Assembly (NCBI GenBank): GCA_964436545.1
Contig: CAYTCJ010000001.1
Span: 78,392-142,391 of the forward strand
Reading direction: 5' to 3'
DNA from: an uncultured Candidatus Saccharibacteria bacterium
GTDB taxonomy: Bacteria > Patescibacteriota > Doudnabacteria > UBA920
Length of the DNA stretch: 64,000 bases
The notes beneath the pieces are model-generated. The model was not told where the DNA came from, ran no database searches, and saw only the letters and a program-made list of their open reading frames with translations. Position 1 is the first letter of the stretch; the number at the start of each line of letters is the position of its first letter. A program made the position numbers and the translations under genes. This document shows positions 3,068 to 58,698 of the stretch, piece after piece.

Positions 3068-4087
3068 ATGTTGGATATTATTTCTATCGGCGACGCCACC
3101 ATTGATACATTTTTGTTTATTGATGATTTGGAAATTAAAAAAATTAATGGCCAAACCAAGGCGATTTTTAATTGGGGAGATAAATTACCGGTAAAAGAAC
3201 TTTATAAAACTGTGGCGGGTAATGCCGCCAATAACGCGGTGGGGAGTGCTCGGTTGGGTTTAAAGACCGCTTATTATACCGTCTTGGCGCACGATGTCGG
3301 CGGGAGAGAAATTATTCACAAAATGAAAAAGGAAGGCGTATCGGAGCGTTATATTGTAATCGATGAAAAACACAGCACTAATGCATCGTTTGTCATTTCT
3401 CATAAAGGCGAGAGAACTATTTTGGTTTATCACCAACATAGAAAGTATAAACTACCGCCTTTAGTTCCATCGAGATGGGTATATTTAACCAGTATGGGTG
3501 AGGGGTTTGAGTCTATTTATCCCGAGTTGTGCCAGTATATAGACAGATATCAGAGTAATTTGGGTTTTAATCCCGGCACGTTTATGCTCAGAGCGGGAGT
3601 TAAGGTGAACAAAGAAATTTTAAAGCGAACTACGTTGTTATCTGTTAATGTGGAAGAAGCGCAAAGTTGGGTGGGGGAGAATAATCGAGATCCGGAAATG
3701 CTGTGTAAAAAATTGTTCAATCTAGGCCCGAAAATTATTGCCCTTACCGATGGCCGAAGAGGGGCTTATTCCTATAGCGAGCAAGGGTTTTATTATGTAC
3801 CGGAATATCCCGGACCCAGAATAGAAGCCACGGGTGCGGGTGATGGTTTTACTACCGCTTATATTGCCGGGTTATTCTATGGGTTGCCACATGCTCAAGC
3901 ACTTAAGTGGGGTCCGGTAAATGCGGGAAGTGTGGTGCAAAAAATTGGACCGCAAGCCGGTTTACTAACCAAACAGGAAATTGCATTACAATTAAAAAAA
4001 TTAAAAAAATTTGAAACCATCAACATTACCGATGCCAAGAGTAAAAAACAGGTAATGGCTATGGTGGCAAAAAAGAAAGATACATAA
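3068..4087 (+). CDS. PfkB-family carbohydrate kinase (ribokinase/phosphofructokinase-like)
   Basis: PfkB signature GAGDGFTTAYIAGL near the C-terminus; N-terminal GDATIDTF; sits in a glycolytic gene cluster. Confidence 0.7.
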   Translation: MLDIISIGDATIDTFLFIDDLEIKKINGQTKAIFNWGDKLPVKELYKTVAGNAANNAVGSARLGLKTAYYTVLAHDVGGREIIHKMKKEGVSERYIVIDEKHSTNASFVISHKGERTILVYHQHRKYKLPPLVPSRWVYLTSMGEGFESIYPELCQYIDRYQSNLGFNPGTFMLRAGVKVNKEILKRTTLLSVNVEEAQSWVGENNRDPEMLCKKLFNLGPKIIALTDGRRGAYSYSEQGFYYVPEYPGPRIEATGAGDGFTTAYIAGLFYGLPHAQALKWGPVNAGSVVQKIGPQAGLLTKQEIALQLKKLKKFETINITDAKSKKQVMAMVAKKKDT

Positions 4088-5357: not shown

Positions 5358-5735
5358 ATGACGCTAATAATAGAACCACAATTATCCTTTAAGATTACAG
5401 GGTTGTGTTTTAAGGTTCATAATAAACTTGGCAGATTTGCAAGCGAAAGACAATATTGTGATGAATTAGAAAAGTTGTTCATAGAAACCGGATTGAGTTA
5501 TGAAAGAGAATGTGATATTAAAACCTTAGTCCCAGATTCCCCAAAAGGTAATAGAGTAGATTTTTTAATTGAAAAGCGAATACTGTTAGACGCAAAGGCT
5601 AAAAAGTTTGTGACCAAAGAAGACTATTTACAAATGATTCGTTATTTAGAGGCATCAAAACTGAAACTCGGATTAATTGTAAATTTTAGAAATACTTATA
5701 TTAAACCGAAGCGTGTAATTAATAGTAAAATTTAA
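5358..5735 (+). CDS. GxxExxY family protein (PD-(D/E)xK nuclease-like small protein)
   Basis: 125 aa with the typical C-terminal YLQMIRYLEASKLKLGLIVNF pattern and central DFLIEKRILLDAKA of the GxxExxY / TIGR04256-like family. Confidence 0.6.
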   Translation: MTLIIEPQLSFKITGLCFKVHNKLGRFASERQYCDELEKLFIETGLSYERECDIKTLVPDSPKGNRVDFLIEKRILLDAKAKKFVTKEDYLQMIRYLEASKLKLGLIVNFRNTYIKPKRVINSKI

Positions 5736-10284: not shown

Positions 10285-11988
10285 ATGCAGAAAAAGTGGA
10301 AAGTCAAGCCGAAAGTTCCCAGTGAATTAGCATCAAGATATGAAAATTTTGATCCGTTTTTAGCGCAACTGTTATATAATCGGGGACTTACTGAGTCGGA
10401 TCAAATTACAGAATTCTTAAACACCGAATACGAAAGGCTACATAGCCCTTTTTTATTTAAGGATATGAAAAAAGCGGTTAAGCGAATTTGGCAAGCCATT
10501 GAGCAACAGGAAAAAATTTGTATTTACGGCGATTACGATGCCGATGCCATTACGGCCAGTGTGGTTTTACTCCAGACTTTTCGTTATTTGGGGGTGGAAG
10601 CAGGTTACTACATCCCAGACAGGTTTAGCGAAGGTTATGGGATTAATTTGCAAGCTTTGGAAAGTCTTAAAAATCAAGGGGTTAAATTGATTATTACGGT
10701 TGATTGCGGAACTAATGCCCGAGAGGCAGGCGAATGGTGTAAAGAGCATAATATTGATTTGATAATTTCCGACCACCACGAAATTATTGGCGAAATGCCT
10801 AAGGCTTTTGCGCTCATTAATCCTAAAAATCCACAAGAGATGTATCCGGACCGAGAAATTACCGGAGTGGGGGTGGCGTTTAAGGTGGCGTGTGGAATAT
10901 TAAAAAATCAAAAATCAAAAATCAAAAATCAAAATTTTATGGAAGGTTGGGAAAAGTGGCTTTTAGATTTAGTGGCCATTGGCACAGTTGCCGATTGTCA
11001 TAAGCTGTTAGGGGAGAATCGAATTTTGGTGAAGTTTGGTTTAAAGGTATTGGCTAAAACCAAATGGCTCGGGCTTCAAGCGCTTATAGCTTCTGCCGGC
11101 TTGGATTTTAACCGGCAGTTACCCGATACTTATACTTTAGGCTTTGTGCTTGCTCCTCGGCTGAATGCCACGGGTCGGTTAGAGCATGCCGGTTTGGCAG
11201 TAGATTTGTTAATGTGTAGCGATGCCATTAAAGCCCAGCAGTCGGCTATGGCCATTGAACAACTGAATCTCAAGCGCCAAGAAACCACGGCATTAATTTT
11301 GAGCGAGGCCCGAGAGCAGGCTTTGCAAATTCAAAATCGACCGGTGTTGGCCATTATGAATGCGCAGTGGCATAAGGGCGTCGTGGGGTTGGTGGCCGGA
11401 AAATTGGCAGAGGAATTTTACAAACCCACTTTTATTTTGGCACAAGAGGGAGCCGAGGCAACCGGCTCGGCTCGCACAGTGGGTAATTTTAATGTAGTGG
11501 ATGCTTTAACTTATTCCGCTAAACATTTAATTCGTTTTGGGGGGCACAAGCAAGCTGCGGGTTTAAGTTTGGATCCCAATAAGTTTGAAAATTTTTATAT
11601 CAGTCTGCTCGAGTTTGCCAACCAAAATCTAACCGAGGATGATTTATCACCCATATTGGAACTGGAAGCAGAGCTAAATGCTTCTGACCTACAACTTACA
11701 ACTTACAACTTACTCGCAAGCCTAGAGCCTTTTGGAGTGGGCAACTTTAAACCTAAGTTTCTAATTAAATCAGCGGAAATCATTTCGCAAAAACCCGTGG
11801 GTGCCAACCAGCAACATTTACAAATGCAAATTCAAATCGGCAGTAAGGTGATTCCGGCTATTGCGTTTAATTTTTCTCCGGTTAAAATTCCCGGTTTGGT
11901 AGATATAGCTTGTGAGTTGCTATTAGATGAGTGGCAAGGTAGAAAAAATTTAAAACTCAGAGTTATAGATATTATTGGAGTGAGTTAA
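10285..11988 (+). CDS. recJ: Single-stranded-DNA-specific exonuclease RecJ (contains two in-frame short tandem repeats)
   Basis: DHH motifs (YGDYDADAITAS, ISDHHE) and the DHHA1 region; repeat-encoded KNQKSKIKNQN and LQLTTYNLL segments. Confidence 0.85.
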   Translation: MQKKWKVKPKVPSELASRYENFDPFLAQLLYNRGLTESDQITEFLNTEYERLHSPFLFKDMKKAVKRIWQAIEQQEKICIYGDYDADAITASVVLLQTFRYLGVEAGYYIPDRFSEGYGINLQALESLKNQGVKLIITVDCGTNAREAGEWCKEHNIDLIISDHHEIIGEMPKAFALINPKNPQEMYPDREITGVGVAFKVACGILKNQKSKIKNQNFMEGWEKWLLDLVAIGTVADCHKLLGENRILVKFGLKVLAKTKWLGLQALIASAGLDFNRQLPDTYTLGFVLAPRLNATGRLEHAGLAVDLLMCSDAIKAQQSAMAIEQLNLKRQETTALILSEAREQALQIQNRPVLAIMNAQWHKGVVGLVAGKLAEEFYKPTFILAQEGAEATGSARTVGNFNVVDALTYSAKHLIRFGGHKQAAGLSLDPNKFENFYISLLEFANQNLTEDDLSPILELEAELNASDLQLTTYNLLASLEPFGVGNFKPKFLIKSAEIISQKPVGANQQHLQMQIQIGSKVIPAIAFNFSPVKIPGLVDIACELLLDEWQGRKNLKLRVIDIIGVS

Positions 11989-12156
11989 CATTTTATCATT
12001 TTATCATTCTAACATTCTAACATTTTAACATTTTAACATTCTAACATTTTAACATTCTAACATTTTAACATTCTAACATCTTATCATCTTAACATCTTAA
12101 CATTCTAACATGGGTTGTTTTTTGATAGATGATAAAATATTATTATGTTAGAATGA
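11988..12156. repeat. Tandem 8-bp repeat array (CATTYTAA, about 15 units) followed by a short inverted copy
   Basis: cattttaacattctaa... units between recJ and rnhA; 3' segment gatgataaaat...ttagaatg is the reverse complement of the units. Confidence 0.8.
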
Positions 12157-12163
12157 ACTTATT

Positions 12164-12655
12164 ATGAAACTCATTATTTATACCGATGGGGGAGCGCGGG
12201 GTAACCCGGGTCCGGCGGGGATTGGGGTAGTAATCACCAACGAAGCCGGAGAAATTCTTGGTAAACATCAACAATACATTGGTAAAGCTACCAACAATGT
12301 GGCGGAGTATAAGGCGCTCATCCTTGCGCTTCAGAAAGTGCAGGAAATTCTAGATATCAAATATCAAATATCAAATCAGATTCATCTCCCCCCTCCCTTA
12401 CCCTCCCCACAACAAGGGGGAGGGAATTTGAATCTGGAAATTAGAATGGATAGTGAGTTGATTGTTCGGCAGATGCAGGGGAGGTATAAAATCAAAGACC
12501 CCACACTTCAGGTTTTGGCGGGTCAGGTATTAACTTTAATTAAAAATTTTCATCTCGTGAATTTTACGCACATCCCCAGAGCGCAAAATCAGGAGGCTGA
12601 TACTTTAGTTAACTCAGCGATCGATGCTTATTTAGCGCAGGCTAATGAAGTTTAA
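12164..12655 (+). CDS. rnhA: Ribonuclease HI with about 24-aa repeat/hairpin-encoded insertion
   Basis: IYTDGGARGNPGPAGIGVVI, NNVAEYKALILAL and MDSELIVRQM motifs; insertion ILDIKYQISNQIHLPPPLPSPQQGGGNLNLE lies between conserved blocks. Confidence 0.85.
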   Translation: MKLIIYTDGGARGNPGPAGIGVVITNEAGEILGKHQQYIGKATNNVAEYKALILALQKVQEILDIKYQISNQIHLPPPLPSPQQGGGNLNLEIRMDSELIVRQMQGRYKIKDPTLQVLAGQVLTLIKNFHLVNFTHIPRAQNQEADTLVNSAIDAYLAQANEV

Positions 12656-17300: not shown

Positions 17301-18680
17301 TTGTTATCAGTTATGACTCCCATTATCTTACATTTAGATATGAATAGTTATTTTGCCTCGGTGCTTCAGCAAGACAACCGGGCTTATAGAGGCAAGGTTT
17401 TAGGTGTGTGTGAGCATTTGGGCGGAATTATTATTTCTGCCAGCAAAGAAGCAAAAAAATGGGGTATAAAAACCGGCACGCCGGTGTGGGAAGCCAAAAA
17501 ACTTTATCCCAAAATTATTTTAACTCATACTACAGCGGAAAGGTTTAGGTTTTATACTCGTCGGTTAATTAAATTGGTTTCCGACTATACCGATCAGGTG
17601 GAAGTCTATAGCATAGATGAAGTGTTTCTTGATATTACGCGGACGTGTAATATCAGCCAATCAGCTTATCAGCATACAAGCTTGTCAGCTGGAGGGGGAG
17701 TTAATCCGTTTGCGGAAGCGGTAAATATGGCTTTGGAAATTAAACACCGCATGAAGCAGGAGGTGGGGGATTATTTAACTTGCAGTATTGGCATTGCGGA
17801 AAATAAAGTTTTAGCGAAAATCGGTTCAGATTTTAAAAAGCCGGATGGCATAGTAGTGATACAAAATTCTAAATCCGAAATTCTAAATCCGAAACAAATT
17901 TTAAATTCTAAATCCCAAATCTTAAATTTGCAAAAAGAAGATTTGTATCATTGCTTAAAGCTCACAGATGTGCCGGGAATTGGGGAGAGACAAGCAAAAA
18001 ATTTACATGCTCTAGGCATTAAAACTTTAGTGGATTTAAAACATTATCCCCAAAGTCATTTAATGGCTCGTTTTGGTAGAATTACCGGACATCATTTGCA
18101 TAATTTAGGCCAATTAAATGCTTCGTGGAAAACTTTGGTTCATCAACAACAAGAAATTAAATCAATCGGTCATATGTACACTTTGCCTAAAGAGTATCGA
18201 AAGCCGGAATTTTTTGAACCCGTGTTATTTAAACTGTGCGAGATGGTGGCTAGGAGGCTGAGGCGGAAAAATTTAGAAGGGAATGTAATCCATGCTTTTT
18301 GTTATTTTGAAGACCATCAAAATTGCGGTAATAGTTTGAAGGTGGGGGATTATATAAGTGATGGGCGGGAAATTTTTAGGTATGCCTCGGATATTTTAAA
18401 AATTTTAAATTCCCCCGCCTTCGGCACCCCCTCTTTGGCCACAGAGGGGGGAGGGGGAGTTAGGAAATTTAGCATGATTGGTATTACCATATCTAATTTA
18501 AGACCAGCCACAGGGCAATTAAGTTTATTTGGGCATAAAGAAGAGAATACAGGGTTATTAAAAGCTTTAGATAAGATTAATAACAAATATGGCGAATTCA
18601 CCGTAGCTCGTGCGCCAATTTTAGCTACCGGCAAAGTTTTTCGCGACAGTGTGGGTTTTGGCAGAGTTAAAGAGCTCTAG
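17301..18680 (+). CDS. dinB: DNA polymerase IV (Y-family) with in-frame repeat and hairpin insertions
   Basis: ILHLDMNSYFASV, SIDEVFLDIT and the PGIGERQAKNLHALGIKTLVDL HhH motif; inserts NSKSEILNPKQILNSKSQILNLQ and NSPAFGTPSLATEGGGGVRKF. Confidence 0.85.
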   Translation: MLSVMTPIILHLDMNSYFASVLQQDNRAYRGKVLGVCEHLGGIIISASKEAKKWGIKTGTPVWEAKKLYPKIILTHTTAERFRFYTRRLIKLVSDYTDQVEVYSIDEVFLDITRTCNISQSAYQHTSLSAGGGVNPFAEAVNMALEIKHRMKQEVGDYLTCSIGIAENKVLAKIGSDFKKPDGIVVIQNSKSEILNPKQILNSKSQILNLQKEDLYHCLKLTDVPGIGERQAKNLHALGIKTLVDLKHYPQSHLMARFGRITGHHLHNLGQLNASWKTLVHQQQEIKSIGHMYTLPKEYRKPEFFEPVLFKLCEMVARRLRRKNLEGNVIHAFCYFEDHQNCGNSLKVGDYISDGREIFRYASDILKILNSPAFGTPSLATEGGGGVRKFSMIGITISNLRPATGQLSLFGHKEENTGLLKALDKINNKYGEFTVARAPILATGKVFRDSVGFGRVKEL

Positions 18681-26570: not shown

Positions 26571-27542
26571 TTGACCAAAATTGACAAAAATTATCAGCAC
26601 ACACCAGTTTTATTAAATGAGGTGTTGGAGTATTTAAACCCCAAGCCGGGACAAAATTTTGTAGATGCAACTTTAGGCGGAGGCGGATATAGTTTGGCCA
26701 TTTTGGATAAAATATTACCGAATGGCAAACTTCTCGCAATTGATTTGGATAAAGATGCGATTAAAAATTTTCAATTTACAATTTCCAATTTTCAAATAAA
26801 AAATCAGGCATTAATCACACTGCATCACGGGAACTTTAAAGATATAGATGAAATTTTAAAGAGTGAGAATTTTCCTAAACCTGACGGGATTGTGGCGGAT
26901 ATTGGGTTATCTTCTTACCAGTTAGACCAAGCCGGCAGAGGGATTAGTTTTCAGAAACAGGAAGAATTAGATATGCGGTTTAACTCCCACACTCCGGGGT
27001 TAACTGCCAAAGAGATTTTAAATAATTATTCGGAAACCGACTTAAGAAAAATTTTTGAAGATTATGGAGAAGAAAAGTTTAGCAGACAAATTGCCCGAAA
27101 GGTGTATGAGTTAAGAGGTAAGGGTCAAGCATTAAATACCACGGCGCAATTGTATCAATTGATTCAAGAAGCTTTGCCCAAACCCTATAAACACAAAGCC
27201 GACAGTAGCGCCAGGCGGATTTTCCAAGCTTTAAGGATAGCGGTAAATGGAGAATTGGAAAATTTGGCGGTTTTTTTACCCCAAGCGTTTAAGGCTTTAA
27301 CACCTGGGGGCAGGTTGGCAATTGTGAGTTTTCACTCTTTGGAAGACCGAATAGTTAAACAGTTTTTTGCCGGGTTGGCTAAAGGCTGTGTGTGTCCGCC
27401 CGAGTTTCCGGTATGCGTGTGCCACCAAAAGCCGGCAGGTAAAATTTTAACCAAACAGCCCATAGTGGCGGGCGATGCCGAAATCTTGCAGAATTCTCGC
27501 AGTCAATCGGCCAAATTAAGAGTAGTGGAAAAACTTATTTAA
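26571..27542 (+). CDS. rsmH: 16S rRNA (cytosine1402-N4)-methyltransferase RsmH
   Basis: HTPVLLNEVLEYL, DATLGGGGYS, VSFHSLEDRIVK. Confidence 0.9.
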   Translation: MTKIDKNYQHTPVLLNEVLEYLNPKPGQNFVDATLGGGGYSLAILDKILPNGKLLAIDLDKDAIKNFQFTISNFQIKNQALITLHHGNFKDIDEILKSENFPKPDGIVADIGLSSYQLDQAGRGISFQKQEELDMRFNSHTPGLTAKEILNNYSETDLRKIFEDYGEEKFSRQIARKVYELRGKGQALNTTAQLYQLIQEALPKPYKHKADSSARRIFQALRIAVNGELENLAVFLPQAFKALTPGGRLAIVSFHSLEDRIVKQFFAGLAKGCVCPPEFPVCVCHQKPAGKILTKQPIVAGDAEILQNSRSQSAKLRVVEKLI

Positions 27543-32384: not shown

Positions 32385-32957
32385 ATGCAAATTTTAGAAC
32401 ATAAAGCAAAAGTGTTTGGTTTGGAATGTAAGCTTGAGCTTTTGCATTTTGATAAAAATGATAGTAAGGAATGGAAGAGGATTTTTGACATTTGGAAAGA
32501 GCTTAAATTAGGGTTAAGAAAATATAAGTCTAGAGAACCTAATATGCCAGAAGGATTATCAGAAGTAGCTTTTTGTCTTTGGTCTGGCTCGGCTCGGTAC
32601 GTAAAACTTAAAGGCTCTAAAAAAGGAATTGCAGGCTCATTTGATACATTTGATTTAAAAAATAATAAAGCTCAACAGATAAAGGCTTGTAGTATTGAGT
32701 TTGATTTAACTTCGTTTGGACCAAAATCAAAATGGGATGATTTATATTTTATAGATTTTTATAATGACGGAAAAGTAGACGGTAAGTTTGATGTATATTT
32801 AATCTCAAATAAATACATTAAGAATCAATCACTCAACAAAAATGAGTTTTTTACCGATCAACAGAAACAAAAGAGAAGACCGCGTTTTGGAATTAAAAAA
32901 GAGATTATTCAAAAATATAGAATTAAGCCTTTGGCAACAAAAGTAAAAGTTTGGTAA
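32385..32957 (+). CDS. Putative type II restriction endonuclease (no family recognised by eye)
   Basis: 190 aa, translationally coupled to the C-protein gene; stop abuts the stop of the convergent C5-methyltransferase gene. Confidence 0.4.
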   Translation: MQILEHKAKVFGLECKLELLHFDKNDSKEWKRIFDIWKELKLGLRKYKSREPNMPEGLSEVAFCLWSGSARYVKLKGSKKGIAGSFDTFDLKNNKAQQIKACSIEFDLTSFGPKSKWDDLYFIDFYNDGKVDGKFDVYLISNKYIKNQSLNKNEFFTDQQKQKRRPRFGIKKEIIQKYRIKPLATKVKVW

Positions 32958-34535
32958 TTAATCCAGTGCTTTCATTATTTGTTTTGCCAAAGCTTCGATG
33001 ACTGGAACACTCACAGAATTTCCTGCTTGTTTATATAAGGCAGAATCTGAAATTTTTGGCAGAACATAATCTTTCGGAAAACCTTGAATTCTAAAACATT
33101 CCAAAGGGGTTAATTTTCGAATCCCTTTTTTATCAATAATTATTGGAACATTATGTCCGCCCATTCCCATATTTGCAGTTAATGTTGGGCAAACACCACT
33201 TTTGTTTTCTCTTACATACTGCCTGCGCCATTGGTAGACTTTACCTTCCTCTTTTACATAATTTTTTAGCTTTTCAAATAATGGTTTGTTATTATAATAA
33301 TATTTTACTGGGACATCTTTCTCTAGTAAATCAGTAATTTTAGTATTTAATCTAACTGGACTAGGAAATTCAAATTTGTCTGAATAAATCTTATTTTTAA
33401 AACCTACAATATATATCCTTTCTCGATTTTGAGGGATATTTCCATATTCCATAGTGTTTAAAACCTTAATTTTTATATAGTAGCCTAAGCTTTGTAATGT
33501 CTCCCCAATAATTTTAAATGTTTTGCCTCCGTCATGACTCTTTAAGTTTTTTACATTTTCCAAAAGAAAACCTGCTGGTTTTCTAGCTTCTAAAATTCTT
33601 GCAATATCAAAAAATAAGTTCCCTCTTCCTTTTTCATCATTAAATCCTTGCCTATAACCTGCAATAGAAAAAGCCTGACAAGGAAAACCACCTAACAGAA
33701 AATCAAATTTTGGTAAATCATCAATTCCAATTTTTCTGATATCTTCAATAACTAGTTTTGTATCTTTAAAATTTAGATCATAAGTATCCTTGCATTGTGG
33801 TTCAAAATCATTTGCGAAAACAGTTTTAAATCCGGCATTTTCAAAACCGAGTCTAATTCCTCCCACTCCAGCAAATAAATCAATTGTTTTAAAATCAAAA
33901 TTGGTTTTTTTCGTTTCTATTTCCCCTGATGTATTATTTGGATTACTAATGACTTGAATGACAACGCCTCTGACTTCAACATCAGCTCGAAATAATGTAG
34001 GCATGTTTGGATTTCTTGGTTCTAAATTAAAGCCCTTTCCTTTTCTGTAAAGTTTTTTTAGTGTAGCTTGATTATCGTCGATAATAGCAACAACTGTTTG
34101 GCCATTTTCAGCCACTGATTGATGTTTAATTATTACAACATCACCATCAAAAATTCCATCGTTAATCATAGAATTTCCTACGACTCGGAGTGCGTAATAA
34201 CCCTCCGATGTTTTTATTTGGGGGTTAATTACCGATATGGATCCATTGCGTTCTTCAATTGCCGGTAGGGGATAGCCCGCTCTAATATTGCCAATTATTG
34301 GGATTTCAATTATTGATTTTATTTGTTTTTTTAGTGTTAAACTTCTTGCAGAATTTTGGGATTTGGCAAGATAACCTTTAATTTTTAACGAATTAATATG
34401 TTCGTGGATAGTGGAAACTGCTTTAAGTCTTAATTTTTTTCGTATTTCTTCAATTGTTGGCGAAATACCGTTTTCAGCGATGTAGGTATTTATAAAATCA
34501 AAGACTTGTTTTTGTTTTTTAGTAAGGGATAGCAT
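32958..34535 (-). CDS. Fusion protein: LexA-like repressor (wHTH plus S24 autopeptidase) fused to a DNA (cytosine-5)-methyltransferase
   Basis: N-terminal 200 aa collinear with E. coli LexA (LTKKQKQVFDFI..., cleavage site AG in IRAGYP, GNSM Ser, ATLKKL Lys); C-terminal FKTIDLFAGVGG (motif I), GGFPCQAFSIAG (motif IV) and ENV (motif VI) of C5-MTases. Confidence 0.8.
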   Translation of the reverse strand: MLSLTKKQKQVFDFINTYIAENGISPTIEEIRKKLRLKAVSTIHEHINSLKIKGYLAKSQNSARSLTLKKQIKSIIEIPIIGNIRAGYPLPAIEERNGSISVINPQIKTSEGYYALRVVGNSMINDGIFDGDVVIIKHQSVAENGQTVVAIIDDNQATLKKLYRKGKGFNLEPRNPNMPTLFRADVEVRGVVIQVISNPNNTSGEIETKKTNFDFKTIDLFAGVGGIRLGFENAGFKTVFANDFEPQCKDTYDLNFKDTKLVIEDIRKIGIDDLPKFDFLLGGFPCQAFSIAGYRQGFNDEKGRGNLFFDIARILEARKPAGFLLENVKNLKSHDGGKTFKIIGETLQSLGYYIKIKVLNTMEYGNIPQNRERIYIVGFKNKIYSDKFEFPSPVRLNTKITDLLEKDVPVKYYYNNKPLFEKLKNYVKEEGKVYQWRRQYVRENKSGVCPTLTANMGMGGHNVPIIIDKKGIRKLTPLECFRIQGFPKDYVLPKISDSALYKQAGNSVSVPVIEALAKQIMKALD

Positions 34536-48630: not shown

Positions 48631-48663
48631 AACCCCTCCTGGAACAGGAGGGGGAGGGGGTGG
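48631..48663 (+). repeat. Hairpin element (forward copy) directly upstream of the DUF559 gene
   Basis: CCCCTCCTGGAACAGGAGGGGGAGGGGGTGG; ends 4 nt before the ATG and supplies GGAGG as RBS. Confidence 0.7.
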
Positions 48664-48667
48664 TAGA

Positions 48668-49018
48668 ATGAATTATCTTTATAACAATATTAAATTAAAA
48701 TTAGTTAGAAAGCACTTACGAAATAATTCCGGTTTGCCTGAGATTATTCTTTGGGAGCAATTAAGAGCAAGCAAGTTGGGAAAAAAATTTAGAAGACAAT
48801 ATGGTGTAGGTAAGTTTGTTCTCGATTTTTATTCTCCCCAAATTCGGTTGGGTATTGAATTAGACGGAGCTACGCATGATAACATAAAAAGTTTTGAGAA
48901 AGATATAATTAGGCAGAAATTTATTGAAAGCCAAAATATAAAAGTAATTAGATTCCAAAATAAAGATGTTTTAGAGAATTTAGAAGGGGTAATTAATGAA
49001 ATAAAAAAATATTTGTGA
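48668..49018 (+). CDS. DUF559 endonuclease-domain protein (Vsr-like fold)
   Basis: LPEIILWEQLRASKLG..FRRQYGVGKFVLDFYSPQIRLGIELDGATHD...KVIRFQNKDVLENLEGVINEI matches DUF559. Confidence 0.75.
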   Translation: MNYLYNNIKLKLVRKHLRNNSGLPEIILWEQLRASKLGKKFRRQYGVGKFVLDFYSPQIRLGIELDGATHDNIKSFEKDIIRQKFIESQNIKVIRFQNKDVLENLEGVINEIKKYL

Positions 49019-49020
49019 TA

Positions 49021-49060
49021 CCACCCCTTAGTCCCCTCCTATTTTAGGAGGGGAAAAAAG
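49021..49060 (-). repeat. Hairpin element (inverted copy) directly downstream of the DUF559 gene
   Basis: Reverse complement reads CCCCTCCTAAAATAGGAGGGGACTAAGGGGTGG, matching the upstream copy. Confidence 0.65.
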
Positions 49061-54841: not shown

Positions 54842-54988
54842 TGCGATGCACATATATGTATTGAATTATGAATCAAGAATTATGAATTATGAGGTAAGAG
54901 TAAAGAATTATGAAGTATGTCCCGCAGAGCGGGATCCCTGCCTTGTCGGCAGACAGGCGTCTTTGGTGGAAATTATAAAGTAAGAACA

Positions 54989-57339: not shown

Positions 57340-58698
57340 TTGAGAGGTTTTGGTCTATGGGTTATAATGGGTGGTATGAAACAGAACTCCCCCAGACCCC
57401 TTCTTTCGAAAAGAGGGAAGAGAGAGCTCCCTAAGGGAGAGAGAAAAAAGGTGCTGATTGCATTAAGCGGTGGAATTGACAGCGCGGTTTCGGCATATCT
57501 ACTTATCAAACAGGGCTTTGAGGTGGAAGGTGCGTTTATGAAGAATTGGACGAGCCAAGAGGGATTACTTAAAAACGAATGTCCGTGGCTTTCGGACAGG
57601 CGAGATGCCTTAAGGGTGGCCGGATTTTTAGGCATTAAACTGCATACGTTGGATTTTGAAAAGCAATACCAAAATACGGTAATGAAGTATTTTTTTTCCG
57701 AATACAAAGCCGGCCGAACCCCCAATCCGGATGTAATGTGCAATAAGGAAATTAAGTTTAAATTGTTATATAATTGGGCTCGCCATCACGGATTTGATTA
57801 TTTAGCTACGGGACATTATGCCCAAGTAGTAAGTAGTAAGTTAGTAAGTAATAAGTATGAAAAACAAAAAACTTACAACTCTACAACTTACAACTTACAA
57901 CTTTTTCGGAGTAAAGATGAATTCAAAGATCAAACTTACTTTATCTATAACATCAAAAGCGAACAATTGCCACATTTATTATTCCCAATTGGGGGGATGA
58001 AAAAAACCGCTGTGCGTGAGTTGGCGCGAAAAATAAAATTGCCCAATGCGGAAAGAAAAGAAAGTATGGGCCTCTGTTTTGTGGGTAAAATTCGGCTGAA
58101 AGATTTTTTACAACAAAAAATAAAAGCGAAGAAAGGGGAGATAGTGTTGGCTTCGGGTTTGTCATCTCGGCCTTTGAGCCGGGATCTAGAATTAAAGAAC
58201 TGGATTCCGGATAGCCTTTCGGGTGCACTCAAGGCTTCTGGAATGACAGAATTGGTTATTGGACAGCATTTTGGGCTTCATAACTACACTATTGGCCAAA
58301 GACAGGGGATACAAGTGGGCGGTAAAGGCGGGCCGTATTATGTTTTAAGTAAAGATTTAAAGCATAACCGACTTTATGTAACCAATGATCCCAATGACAA
58401 AAGGTTGTTAGTCAAAGAAGTGCAAATTCATAGTGTGAATTGGATAACTCCCCCTAACCCCCTCTTTGGAAAAGAGGGGGGAGGGAGAATTTCCCCTCTT
58501 AAAATAAGAGGGGATAAAGGGGTGATATTACTTGGTAGATATCGTCATCAGGGGGAGCTGGTGCCACTTACAGTATCTCAAATAAACCAAGATTTATATA
58601 AAATAATTTTTAAAACTCCACAAAAAGCTGTTGCCAGTGGGCAAAGTTTGGTATTATATAAAGGTAAGGAATGTGTGGGAGGGGGAGTAATTGGGTAA
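57340..58698 (+). CDS. mnmA: tRNA-specific 2-thiouridylase MnmA with three in-frame repeat/hairpin insertions
   Basis: PP-loop LIALSGGIDSAV, catalytic CNKEIKF and GLCFVG; insertions at 57387-57445, 57826-57903 and 58448-58524. Confidence 0.85.
   Translation: MRGFGLWVIMGGMKQNSPRPLLSKRGKRELPKGERKKVLIALSGGIDSAVSAYLLIKQGFEVEGAFMKNWTSQEGLLKNECPWLSDRRDALRVAGFLGIKLHTLDFEKQYQNTVMKYFFSEYKAGRTPNPDVMCNKEIKFKLLYNWARHHGFDYLATGHYAQVVSSKLVSNKYEKQKTYNSTTYNLQLFRSKDEFKDQTYFIYNIKSEQLPHLLFPIGGMKKTAVRELARKIKLPNAERKESMGLCFVGKIRLKDFLQQKIKAKKGEIVLASGLSSRPLSRDLELKNWIPDSLSGALKASGMTELVIGQHFGLHNYTIGQRQGIQVGGKGGPYYVLSKDLKHNRLYVTNDPNDKRLLVKEVQIHSVNWITPPNPLFGKEGGGRISPLKIRGDKGVILLGRYRHQGELVPLTVSQINQDLYKIIFKTPQKAVASGQSLVLYKGKECVGGGVIG

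Follow-up and report, generated by a model that had tools for sequence, protein, structure and literature searches.

How a C-rich/G-rich palindrome came to lie in frame inside a conserved enzyme is the question raised by the rnhA gene of an uncultured Candidatus Saccharibacteria bacterium, located in a 64,000-nt stretch of contig CAYTCJ010000001.1 (the whole stretch that was analysed, called the window below). The rnhA insert was probably a solo copy of the end module of cassettes carrying a DUF559 nuclease gene; the insert belongs to a dispersed family of three-block palindromes and would be tolerated as a disordered surface loop. The element is a member of this family, is inserted in frame and shows presence/absence polymorphism among relatives, and the family is associated with DUF559 genes.

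The rnhA gene and its in-frame insert

The rnhA open reading frame (ORF, 12164-12655, plus strand) encoded a ribonuclease HI of 163 aa, matching Pfam RNase_H/RVT_3 and PDB 3U3G, and its translation contained ...QIHLPPPLPSPQQGGGNLNLE... The sequence of the C-rich/G-rich hairpin at 12352-12440 was as the earlier note described it, in frame within this ORF, and the segment between the conserved RNase H blocks was indeed non-homologous. The matches to Pfam and to 3U3G (E 7.6e-39) were broken in two, aa 2-61 and aa 89-157, so that aa 62-88 (12347-12427, plus strand) formed a gap in both alignments, in the loop between helix A and strand 4. This segment comprised 27 residues (81 nt) versus a 7-residue loop in the Thermotoga-type structure 3U3G, and the solved RNase H structures in the PDB alignment were without it.

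In the AlphaFold model the RNase H core was intact with pLDDT (predicted local distance difference test) of at least 94, against 51-72 within the insert. Helix A was longer, ending at residue 73, and residues 74-89, which the hairpin encodes, were modelled as low-confidence coil, which points to a tolerated, disordered surface loop. From the known RNase H fold, the insert would face away from the catalytic acids. The peptide derived from the repeat is predicted to read LPPPLPSPQQGGG.

At the DNA level several parts could be told apart. A heptanucleotide tandem array, (ATATCAA)x3.3, was found by TRF at 12354-12376 (plus strand). It was followed by an outer inverted repeat (12377-12436) with arms CAGATTCA (12377-12384) and TGAATCTG (12429-12436), which enclosed the three-block element (12388-12424, minus strand). 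In plus-strand order the element consisted of CCCCCCTCCC (12388-12397), TTA, CCCTCCCC (12401-12408), the loop ACAACAAG and GGGGAGGG (12417-12424). On the minus strand it read CCCTCCCC-loop-GGGGAGGG-TAA-GGGAGGGGGG, i.e. pyrimidine block, purine block and mirror purine block, and in the three-block test it was found as CCCTCCCC-N7-GGGGAGGG-TAA-GGGAGGGG.

These boundaries changed part of the earlier description. The terminal inverted repeats named there exist, with the left arm one base further left, but they are not a family feature, as the outer repeat occurred only in the rnhA copy of the window and was missing from the rnhA hairpins of two relatives (L003 and L006). The ATATCAA array was present too; it is a separate module outside the palindromic family and belongs to heptanucleotide arrays found genome-wide. 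What had been called a simple hairpin is palindromic, but its unit is a three-block C/G/G-mirror motif of the BoxC/PIT type. The label MITE-like or REP-like (miniature inverted-repeat transposable element; repetitive extragenic palindrome) held for a dispersed palindromic family that is REP-like in a broad sense, while MITE hallmarks were not found at rnhA.

Motif architecture and further copies in the window

Every copy in the window followed one pattern: a pyrimidine block, a loop, the complementary purine block, a short loop (TAA, TTA, CTA or GA) and a mirror purine block. When the window was scanned with 7-nt blocks and at most one mismatch, 7 three-block motifs were obtained versus 0 in 30 shuffles, and all six window elements fitted; CCCCTC-N5-16-GAGGGG occurred 5 times versus 0 in 100 shuffles. 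The pattern is therefore far from chance. The RNA fold z-scores against shuffled controls, computed with Watson-Crick folding only, were -2.7 for rnhA, -2.8 for dinB, -3.2 for the C-terminal copy of mnmA and -0.3 for the N-terminal one. An Rfam scan of the whole window at gathering thresholds returned 3 tRNAs only, and the elements were unmatched.

The earlier note had placed insertions in dinB and mnmA in the same family. This was right for dinB and for the C-terminus of mnmA, where both copies were in frame and had ACCCCCTCTTTGG...ARAGGGGGGAGGG (13+13 nt) in common. The dinB copy (18410-18461, plus strand) had the structure TTCCCCC - GCCTTCGGC - CCCCCTCT..AGAGGGGG - GAGGGGGAGTT and the in-frame reading NSPAFGTPSLATEGGGGV. 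The C-terminal copy of mnmA (58446-58525, plus strand) was composite, joining two hairpins and their C and G extensions, and gave TPPNPLFGKEGGGRISPLKIRGDKGV when read in frame. The N-terminal copy of mnmA was also present (57384-57446, plus strand), but it was degenerate and would be translated, as an N-terminal extension, only with a start at ATG 57376 or farther upstream; otherwise it would belong to the leader. In the comparison with PDB structures, MnmA was aligned from aa 34-35 onwards. Two further in-frame inserts relative to solved structures, neither with a C/G three-block motif, were noticed in the same proteins, i.e. aa 274-306 of MnmA (58157-58255, LSSRPLSRDLELKNWIPDSLSGALKASGMTELV) and aa ~117-133 of DinB (17650-17700, SQSAYQHTSLSAGGGV).

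The supposition that the elements are stop-free in all six frames proved wrong. Open frames numbered 5/6 in the rnhA core, 4/6 in dinB and 3/6 in the mnmA composite. The elements are stop-poor, not stop-free, and selection must therefore filter which insertions survive.

Copies in related and other genomes

The insertions were lineage-specific, as had been supposed. The closest RnhA homolog (P0002, 87% identical) was without the hairpin in a DNA-level comparison, the DinB of L006 was without the dinB copy, and solved DinB and MnmA structures showed a gap or an unaligned region at the copy sites, as was the case for RnhA. In L006, which is syntenic with the window and has an RnhA only ~65% identical, the identical 21-nt core CCCCCCTCCCTTACCCTCCCC was present at the same rnhA site, and L003 had a different hairpin there, CCCCCTCTTA-TCT-TAAGAGGGGG. 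An alignment of 24 RnhA homologs showed that the loop between helix A and strand 4 is hypervariable. The Pro-rich...Gly-rich signature was found in this loop in 8 of the 120 best homologs, and homologs bearing the hairpin were scattered among relatives without it in a neighbour-joining tree, a weak one built on ~125 aa.

An exact scan with CCCCCTCTTTGG-N2-4-ARAGGGGGGAGGG over one genome per species gave four matches, three of them in "Ca. Saccharibacteria" metagenome-assembled genomes (MAGs). All three copies were in frame within housekeeping genes, namely UvrC (L007, ...NSPSPLFAKEGVAKPGEF...), MurD (L008, ...GTPPPPSLAKEGVKGELE...) and TopA (L009, ...ATPPPPSLAKEGVAKPGAF...), and they were near-identical to the dinB copy over ~50 nt. 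The common unit of ~50 nt was AACTCCCCC - spacer (often GGCTTCGCCA) - CCCCCTCTTTGG - loop - AAAGAGGGGG - GAGGGGGAGTT, occurring in both orientations and in different frames. A second copy was found within UvrC of L007, and a third in a 976-aa ORF of the same locus.

A metagenome scan with an 18-mer gave 20 hairpin-class matches among 120, all 20 intergenic and on contigs of 38-57% GC. About 75 of the 120 matches belonged to an unrelated high-copy repeat, ...GCATAGGTGTAGCC-AGAGGGGGGAGGGGGAGT-GGACTGGAGGGGTTAGCCCCCTCCA..., in the L013-L130 loci (e.g. L016, L018, L024; samples Ga0056131/2, Ga0209788, Ga0209681). It was mostly located at contig ends and therefore breaks the assemblies of some 40-50% GC organism in those samples.

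Association with DUF559 nuclease genes

Two intergenic copies, absent from the earlier note, are the best lead to the origin of the element. They flanked a DUF559 (PF04480) gene (48668-49018, plus strand; Pfam E 1.3e-25; PDB 3HRL), which encoded a Vsr-like PD-(D/E)xK nuclease of 116 aa and is the candidate autonomous partner of the repeats. Residues E64 and D66 were invariant in an alignment. One copy lay directly 5' of the DUF559 start (48633-48666, plus strand; CCCCTCCTG-GAA-CAGGAGGGG + GAGGGGGTGGTA), and the other directly 3' of the gene (49019-49054, minus strand; TACCACCCC + TTAG + TCCCCTCCTA-TTT-TAGGAGGGGA). There was a hairpin on each flank; GGGGTGGTA closed the 5' flank before the ATG, and the complementary TACCACCCC opened the 3' flank after the stop codon. 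A terminator role of the copy after DUF559 was rejected since a run of A, not T, comes next.

The same layout recurred in other genomes: a hairpin (with or without a small hairpin) and a G-extension, the DUF559 ORF, then a complementary C-extension (again with or without a small hairpin) and a hairpin. Hairpins on both sides were found at all 14 DUF559 genes of closer homologs whose flanks were readable, in DNA of 36-72% GC. The layout was identified in loci of the candidate phyla radiation (CPR; L131 with two DUF559 copies, and L132), in a Bacteroidetes MAG (L133, two copies), in contigs of 43-72% GC (L134, L135 and L137), in genomes of 52% and 65% GC (L144 and L145), and also in L007 and L142. 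The two extensions of L137, GGAGGGGGAAG and CTTCCCCCTCC, were perfect complements. Over the 61 kb of L131-L133, 16 of the 17 CT/GA hairpins adjoined DUF559 genes, while a GIY-YIG ORF and ~55 other genes were without them. In two metagenome loci (L116 and L120) the motif stood immediately 5' of the DUF559 start codon. Read-through into a Pro-rich tail was seen in 29/120 DUF559 homologs versus 1/120 RnhA homologs (Fisher p = 9.5e-9). Among viral contigs, a scan with a single DUF559 protein gave no matches and an alignment-based scan gave 7 loci.

Within the window, hairpin 2 of the mnmA composite matched the 3' flank of DUF559 in 35/39 positions, with one compensatory pair among the differences. 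Judged from its sequence, the composite looks like a DUF559 cassette without its ORF.

Positions of the repeats could be compared with L142, whose histidyl-tRNA synthetase is 77% identical to that of the window and which is syntenic from the phosphoenolpyruvate carboxylase gene to an HD-domain gene. At the site of the window's DUF559, L142 had no DUF559 and carried a solo rnhA-type motif, CACCCCTCCC-TAT-CCCTCCCC...GGGGAGGG, inside an insert of ~115 nt. The DUF559 cassette of L142 was located 3' of the HD gene, where the window had an empty 28-nt spacer. Both cassettes and solo copies therefore differ in position between relatives. The L142 insert (3387-3505) was bounded by short inverted sequences (CATCATA / TATGATG), with TATAGGT as a possible duplication of 7 nt, and was the single MITE-like junction seen.

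Comparison with BoxC/PIT repeats and other known systems

The BoxC/PIT (potential intrastrand triplex) repeats of E. coli have been known since the 1990s. To our knowledge, they lack an established origin, function and mobilising enzyme. The consensus called TM_ECO is CCCTCNCCC-N3-6-GGGNGAGGG-N3-GGGNGAGGG, with 23 copies in E. coli K-12 and a total of 3610 across 262 genomes of proteobacteria; it forms a stable triplex in vitro, is "always" intergenic and has no link to mobile elements that could be found, and its loci are hypervariable from strain to strain in E. coli (Holder et al. 2015, PMC4666352). Other G/C-rich triplex motifs, treated separately from TM_ECO, were abundant in cyanobacteria (PMC4666352).

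The window family resembled these repeats in its build, that is a C-rich block, a loop of 3-8 nt, the complementary G-rich block, a short TTA/TAA loop and a mirror G-rich block. It was likewise multi-copy and dispersed, in both orientations and sometimes in inverted pairs, at loci variable between relatives. The strict TM_ECO consensus did not apply, since the block sequences differed, the window blocks were 7-8 nt long (CCCTCCCC, CCCCCTCT) against the 9 nt of CCCTCNCCC, and loop 1 in rnhA was 7-8 nt; the host was also of another group, Patescibacteria/CPR, as the names of homologs (e.g. Ca. Doudnabacteria and "Patescibacteria group") indicate. The intergenic-only rule was broken as well, because the rnhA, dinB and mnmA copies lay inside intact ORFs and most window copies are predicted to be translated. 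The link to DUF559 was seen for the window family and is unreported for BoxC. Literature searches gave no later work on PIT elements, no paper connecting DUF559 with repeats and none on in-frame palindromes of CPR bacteria, and as far as the searchable literature shows the link between DUF559 and repeats is unreported.

E. coli has only one DUF559 gene, ycjD, which ends inside CCCTCTCCCTGAAAGAGCGAGGGGG, and TM_ECO no. 9 lies ~170 nt downstream of it. The GTG start of ycjD was located inside the 3' arm of a perfect 16-bp hairpin. Between ycjD and TM_ECO no. 9, a fragment resembling the 3' end of ycjD, GGAGACGGTGCTGGAGAATATTCGGCAAGGTCTGAACCG..., was noticed by eye, without alignment, in E. coli K-12 (L141, 4190-4420).

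In-frame palindromic repeats in housekeeping genes of a reduced genome were reportedly described by Ogata et al. in 2000 as Rickettsia palindromic elements (RPEs). The likeness to the window elements lies in the in-frame palindromic insertion into protein-coding genes, which was also found here, and in the addition of a surface peptide that leaves the protein intact. RPEs differ in that they are ~100-150 bp long, occur in Rickettsia only and have no known partner gene, while the window elements are 39-79 nt, consist of three-block motifs with C-runs and G-runs, and serve as the ends of nuclease cassettes. RPEs are also mentioned in PMC10969869.

With REPs, REPINs and the REP-associated tyrosine transposase (RAYT) genes, the window family had in common short imperfect palindromes, many solo copies and one small enzyme gene flanked by the repeat. 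However, REPs are extragenic and most window copies intragenic, and the flanked gene here encoded a Vsr-fold PD-(D/E)xK nuclease (DUF559) instead of a Y1 (IS200/IS605-type) transposase. Selfish, mobile endonuclease genes that encode a Vsr-fold nuclease are known from the Vsr-like homing endonucleases of the I-Bth0305I family (PMC3239194, PMC2677866), which serves as a precedent. Its enzymes are found within group I introns or else between split inteins, and they possess an additional DNA-binding region, whereas DUF559 was free-standing between palindromic modules.

Proposed mechanism and alternative explanations

The rnhA insert as a solo cassette end could have arisen as follows. In the CPR/Patescibacteria lineage, repeat copies would have reached coding DNA, either by landing there or by being copied into it. 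Such copies could survive only when their length was a multiple of three, their reading frame was free of stops and they fell in a permissive surface loop, and the survivors would be translated as Pro-rich and then Gly-rich disordered peptides. Solo copies would be ORF-less relatives of cassette ends, standing to the DUF559 cassettes as REPs stand to RAYT genes or MITEs to insertion sequence (IS) elements. The repeats may be mobilised by the DUF559 nuclease, whose Vsr fold would recognise the folded repeat and nick or cut it. Repair of the nick or break by copying from another repeat copy could then spread both cassettes and ORF-less ends.

More tentatively, DUF559/YcjD-type nucleases and BoxC/PIT-type palindromes may together form an unrecognised class of mobile cassettes across several phyla, whose ORF-less solo ends spread like REPs and MITEs. 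If so, the origin of the E. coli BoxC repeats would be explained, and essential proteins of CPR bacteria, which have almost no intergenic space, would have a steady source of new peptide loops. The cassette layout across genomes of 36-72% GC gives a candidate enzyme for BoxC/PIT, one present in E. coli K-12 as ycjD. After Rickettsia, the CPR would also be a second lineage whose essential enzymes routinely include, by prediction, the translation of a palindromic repeat. This bears on the tolerance of selfish DNA in reduced genomes, on the origin of new surface loops and on the annotation and alignment of CPR proteins.

Several points weigh against the derivation from mobile cassettes. The rnhA site had no terminal inverted repeats shared by the family, no target-site duplication was seen at its junctions, and no IS parent was found. 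The more distant DUF559 homologs L136 and L138-L140 were without hairpins. For DUF559 we know of no cleavage or transposition activity. In E. coli, ycjD was present in 3378 of 5426 genomes (38% without it) while BoxC was present in all 5426, so BoxC persists without the nuclease; only 1 of 18 TM loci adjoined ycjD. No DUF559 3'-end remnants were found beside other E. coli BoxC copies, with at most 2 places per genome in the 5426 genomes. The 3' arm of the hairpin contains a GGAGG ribosome-binding site, and the hairpins may thus be regulatory or translational control signals of the DUF559 gene itself. The DUF559 cassettes may also merely insert at, target or persist at pre-existing repeats. Finally, the window and L006 have an identical core at one and the same site of rnhA although the proteins are ~65% identical, which could reflect selection on the element instead of neutrality.

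The strongest rival, though an unlikely one, is that the repeats are mobile or recombinogenic independently of DUF559, through an unseen transposase (e.g. an IS200/IS605-type RAYT), gene conversion or illegitimate recombination triggered by non-B DNA, with DUF559 genes as selfish cassettes homing into repeats or retained beside them. The E. coli counts above agree with it, as do the hypervariable TM loci without a mobile-element link (Holder et al., PMC4666352). The DUF559 genes of L007 and L142 lay between direct repeats of the whole compound module (~80 nt and ~120 nt, respectively), as expected for recombination at a pre-existing module. However, in L131-L133, L144 and L145 the long hairpins were found almost only beside DUF559 and nowhere else in the 20-kb stretches, so no pool of pre-existing targets existed there, and no transposase or RAYT was found among the 14 window ORFs scanned against Pfam.

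It is improbable that the rnhA segment is a convergent, low-complexity feature of a hypervariable loop, generated locally by slippage or hairpin-templated duplication, or selected for an mRNA or DNA structure or as a Pro/Gly linker. The loop varies across nearly all RnhA homologs of CPR bacteria, with short tandem arrays in every case, the window and L006 share their core at one site, and L003 keeps the pairing with a different stem sequence, all of which would suit such an origin. A local process would not account for the three-block architecture with a TTA/TAA second loop common to unrelated genes and genomes, and the closest homolog was without the element, whose modelled peptide is disordered.

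An assembly artefact of G/C homopolymers, or removal of the segment from the mRNA or protein in the manner of an intron or intein, has nothing but the homopolymer runs in its favour and is very improbable, as the identical RnhA protein was encoded by an independent Logan assembly (L001), homologous inserts were present in contigs of other samples (JGI, NCBI and Logan), the reading frames were intact, and Rfam gave no match. The identity as an intein or intron was rejected in itself, since 39-79 nt is far too small and the motifs were absent.

Other repeats and nuclease genes

In-frame heptanucleotide arrays of 3-8 copies were noticed in conserved genes of the window, i.e. in recJ (10903-10934 and 11690-11713), rnhA (12354-12376) and dinB (17864-17920), with others at 26766-26795, in mnmA (57824-57857 and 57870-57903) and in an intergenic region (54862-54919). 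Such heptamers are read in all three frames and give 7-aa peptide repeats, e.g. KNQKSKIKN. The two arrays of mnmA were copies of one another in opposite orientation, and pairing between them could give a long hairpin. The loop with the rnhA array carried a heptamer array in almost every RnhA homolog of CPR bacteria, with the heptamer differing, such as ISNFKFQISN from (ATTTCAA)n, LTTHNSQLTT from (CTTACAA)n, VSSFEFRVSS from (GTTTCGA)n and GLRAKGLGLS from (GGGCTAA)n. The spacer between recJ and rnhA (11985-12111) was filled by a 16-copy tandem array of an 8-mer (TTAACATT / TCTAACAT).

A patch of low GC (30%) carried a Bsp6I-like restriction endonuclease gene (32385-32957, plus strand). Next to it, at 32958-34535 (minus strand), an unusual 525-aa fusion of a LexA DNA-binding domain, peptidase S24 and C-5 cytosine methyltransferase was encoded, that is an SOS-repressor/methylase. 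A C-5 cytosine methyltransferase in the genome would also bear on whether DUF559 has a true repair role of the Vsr kind.

Three syntenic genomes of the CPR each had a small nuclease gene, free-standing, in the spacer between gap and pgk, i.e. the window (5358-5735), L006 (2126-2536) and L131 (14875-15171). The gene was of the PDDEXK_3 type in the window and L006 and of the GIY-YIG type in L131, where pgk was split into two ORFs. This spacer looks like a hotspot for selfish nuclease genes.

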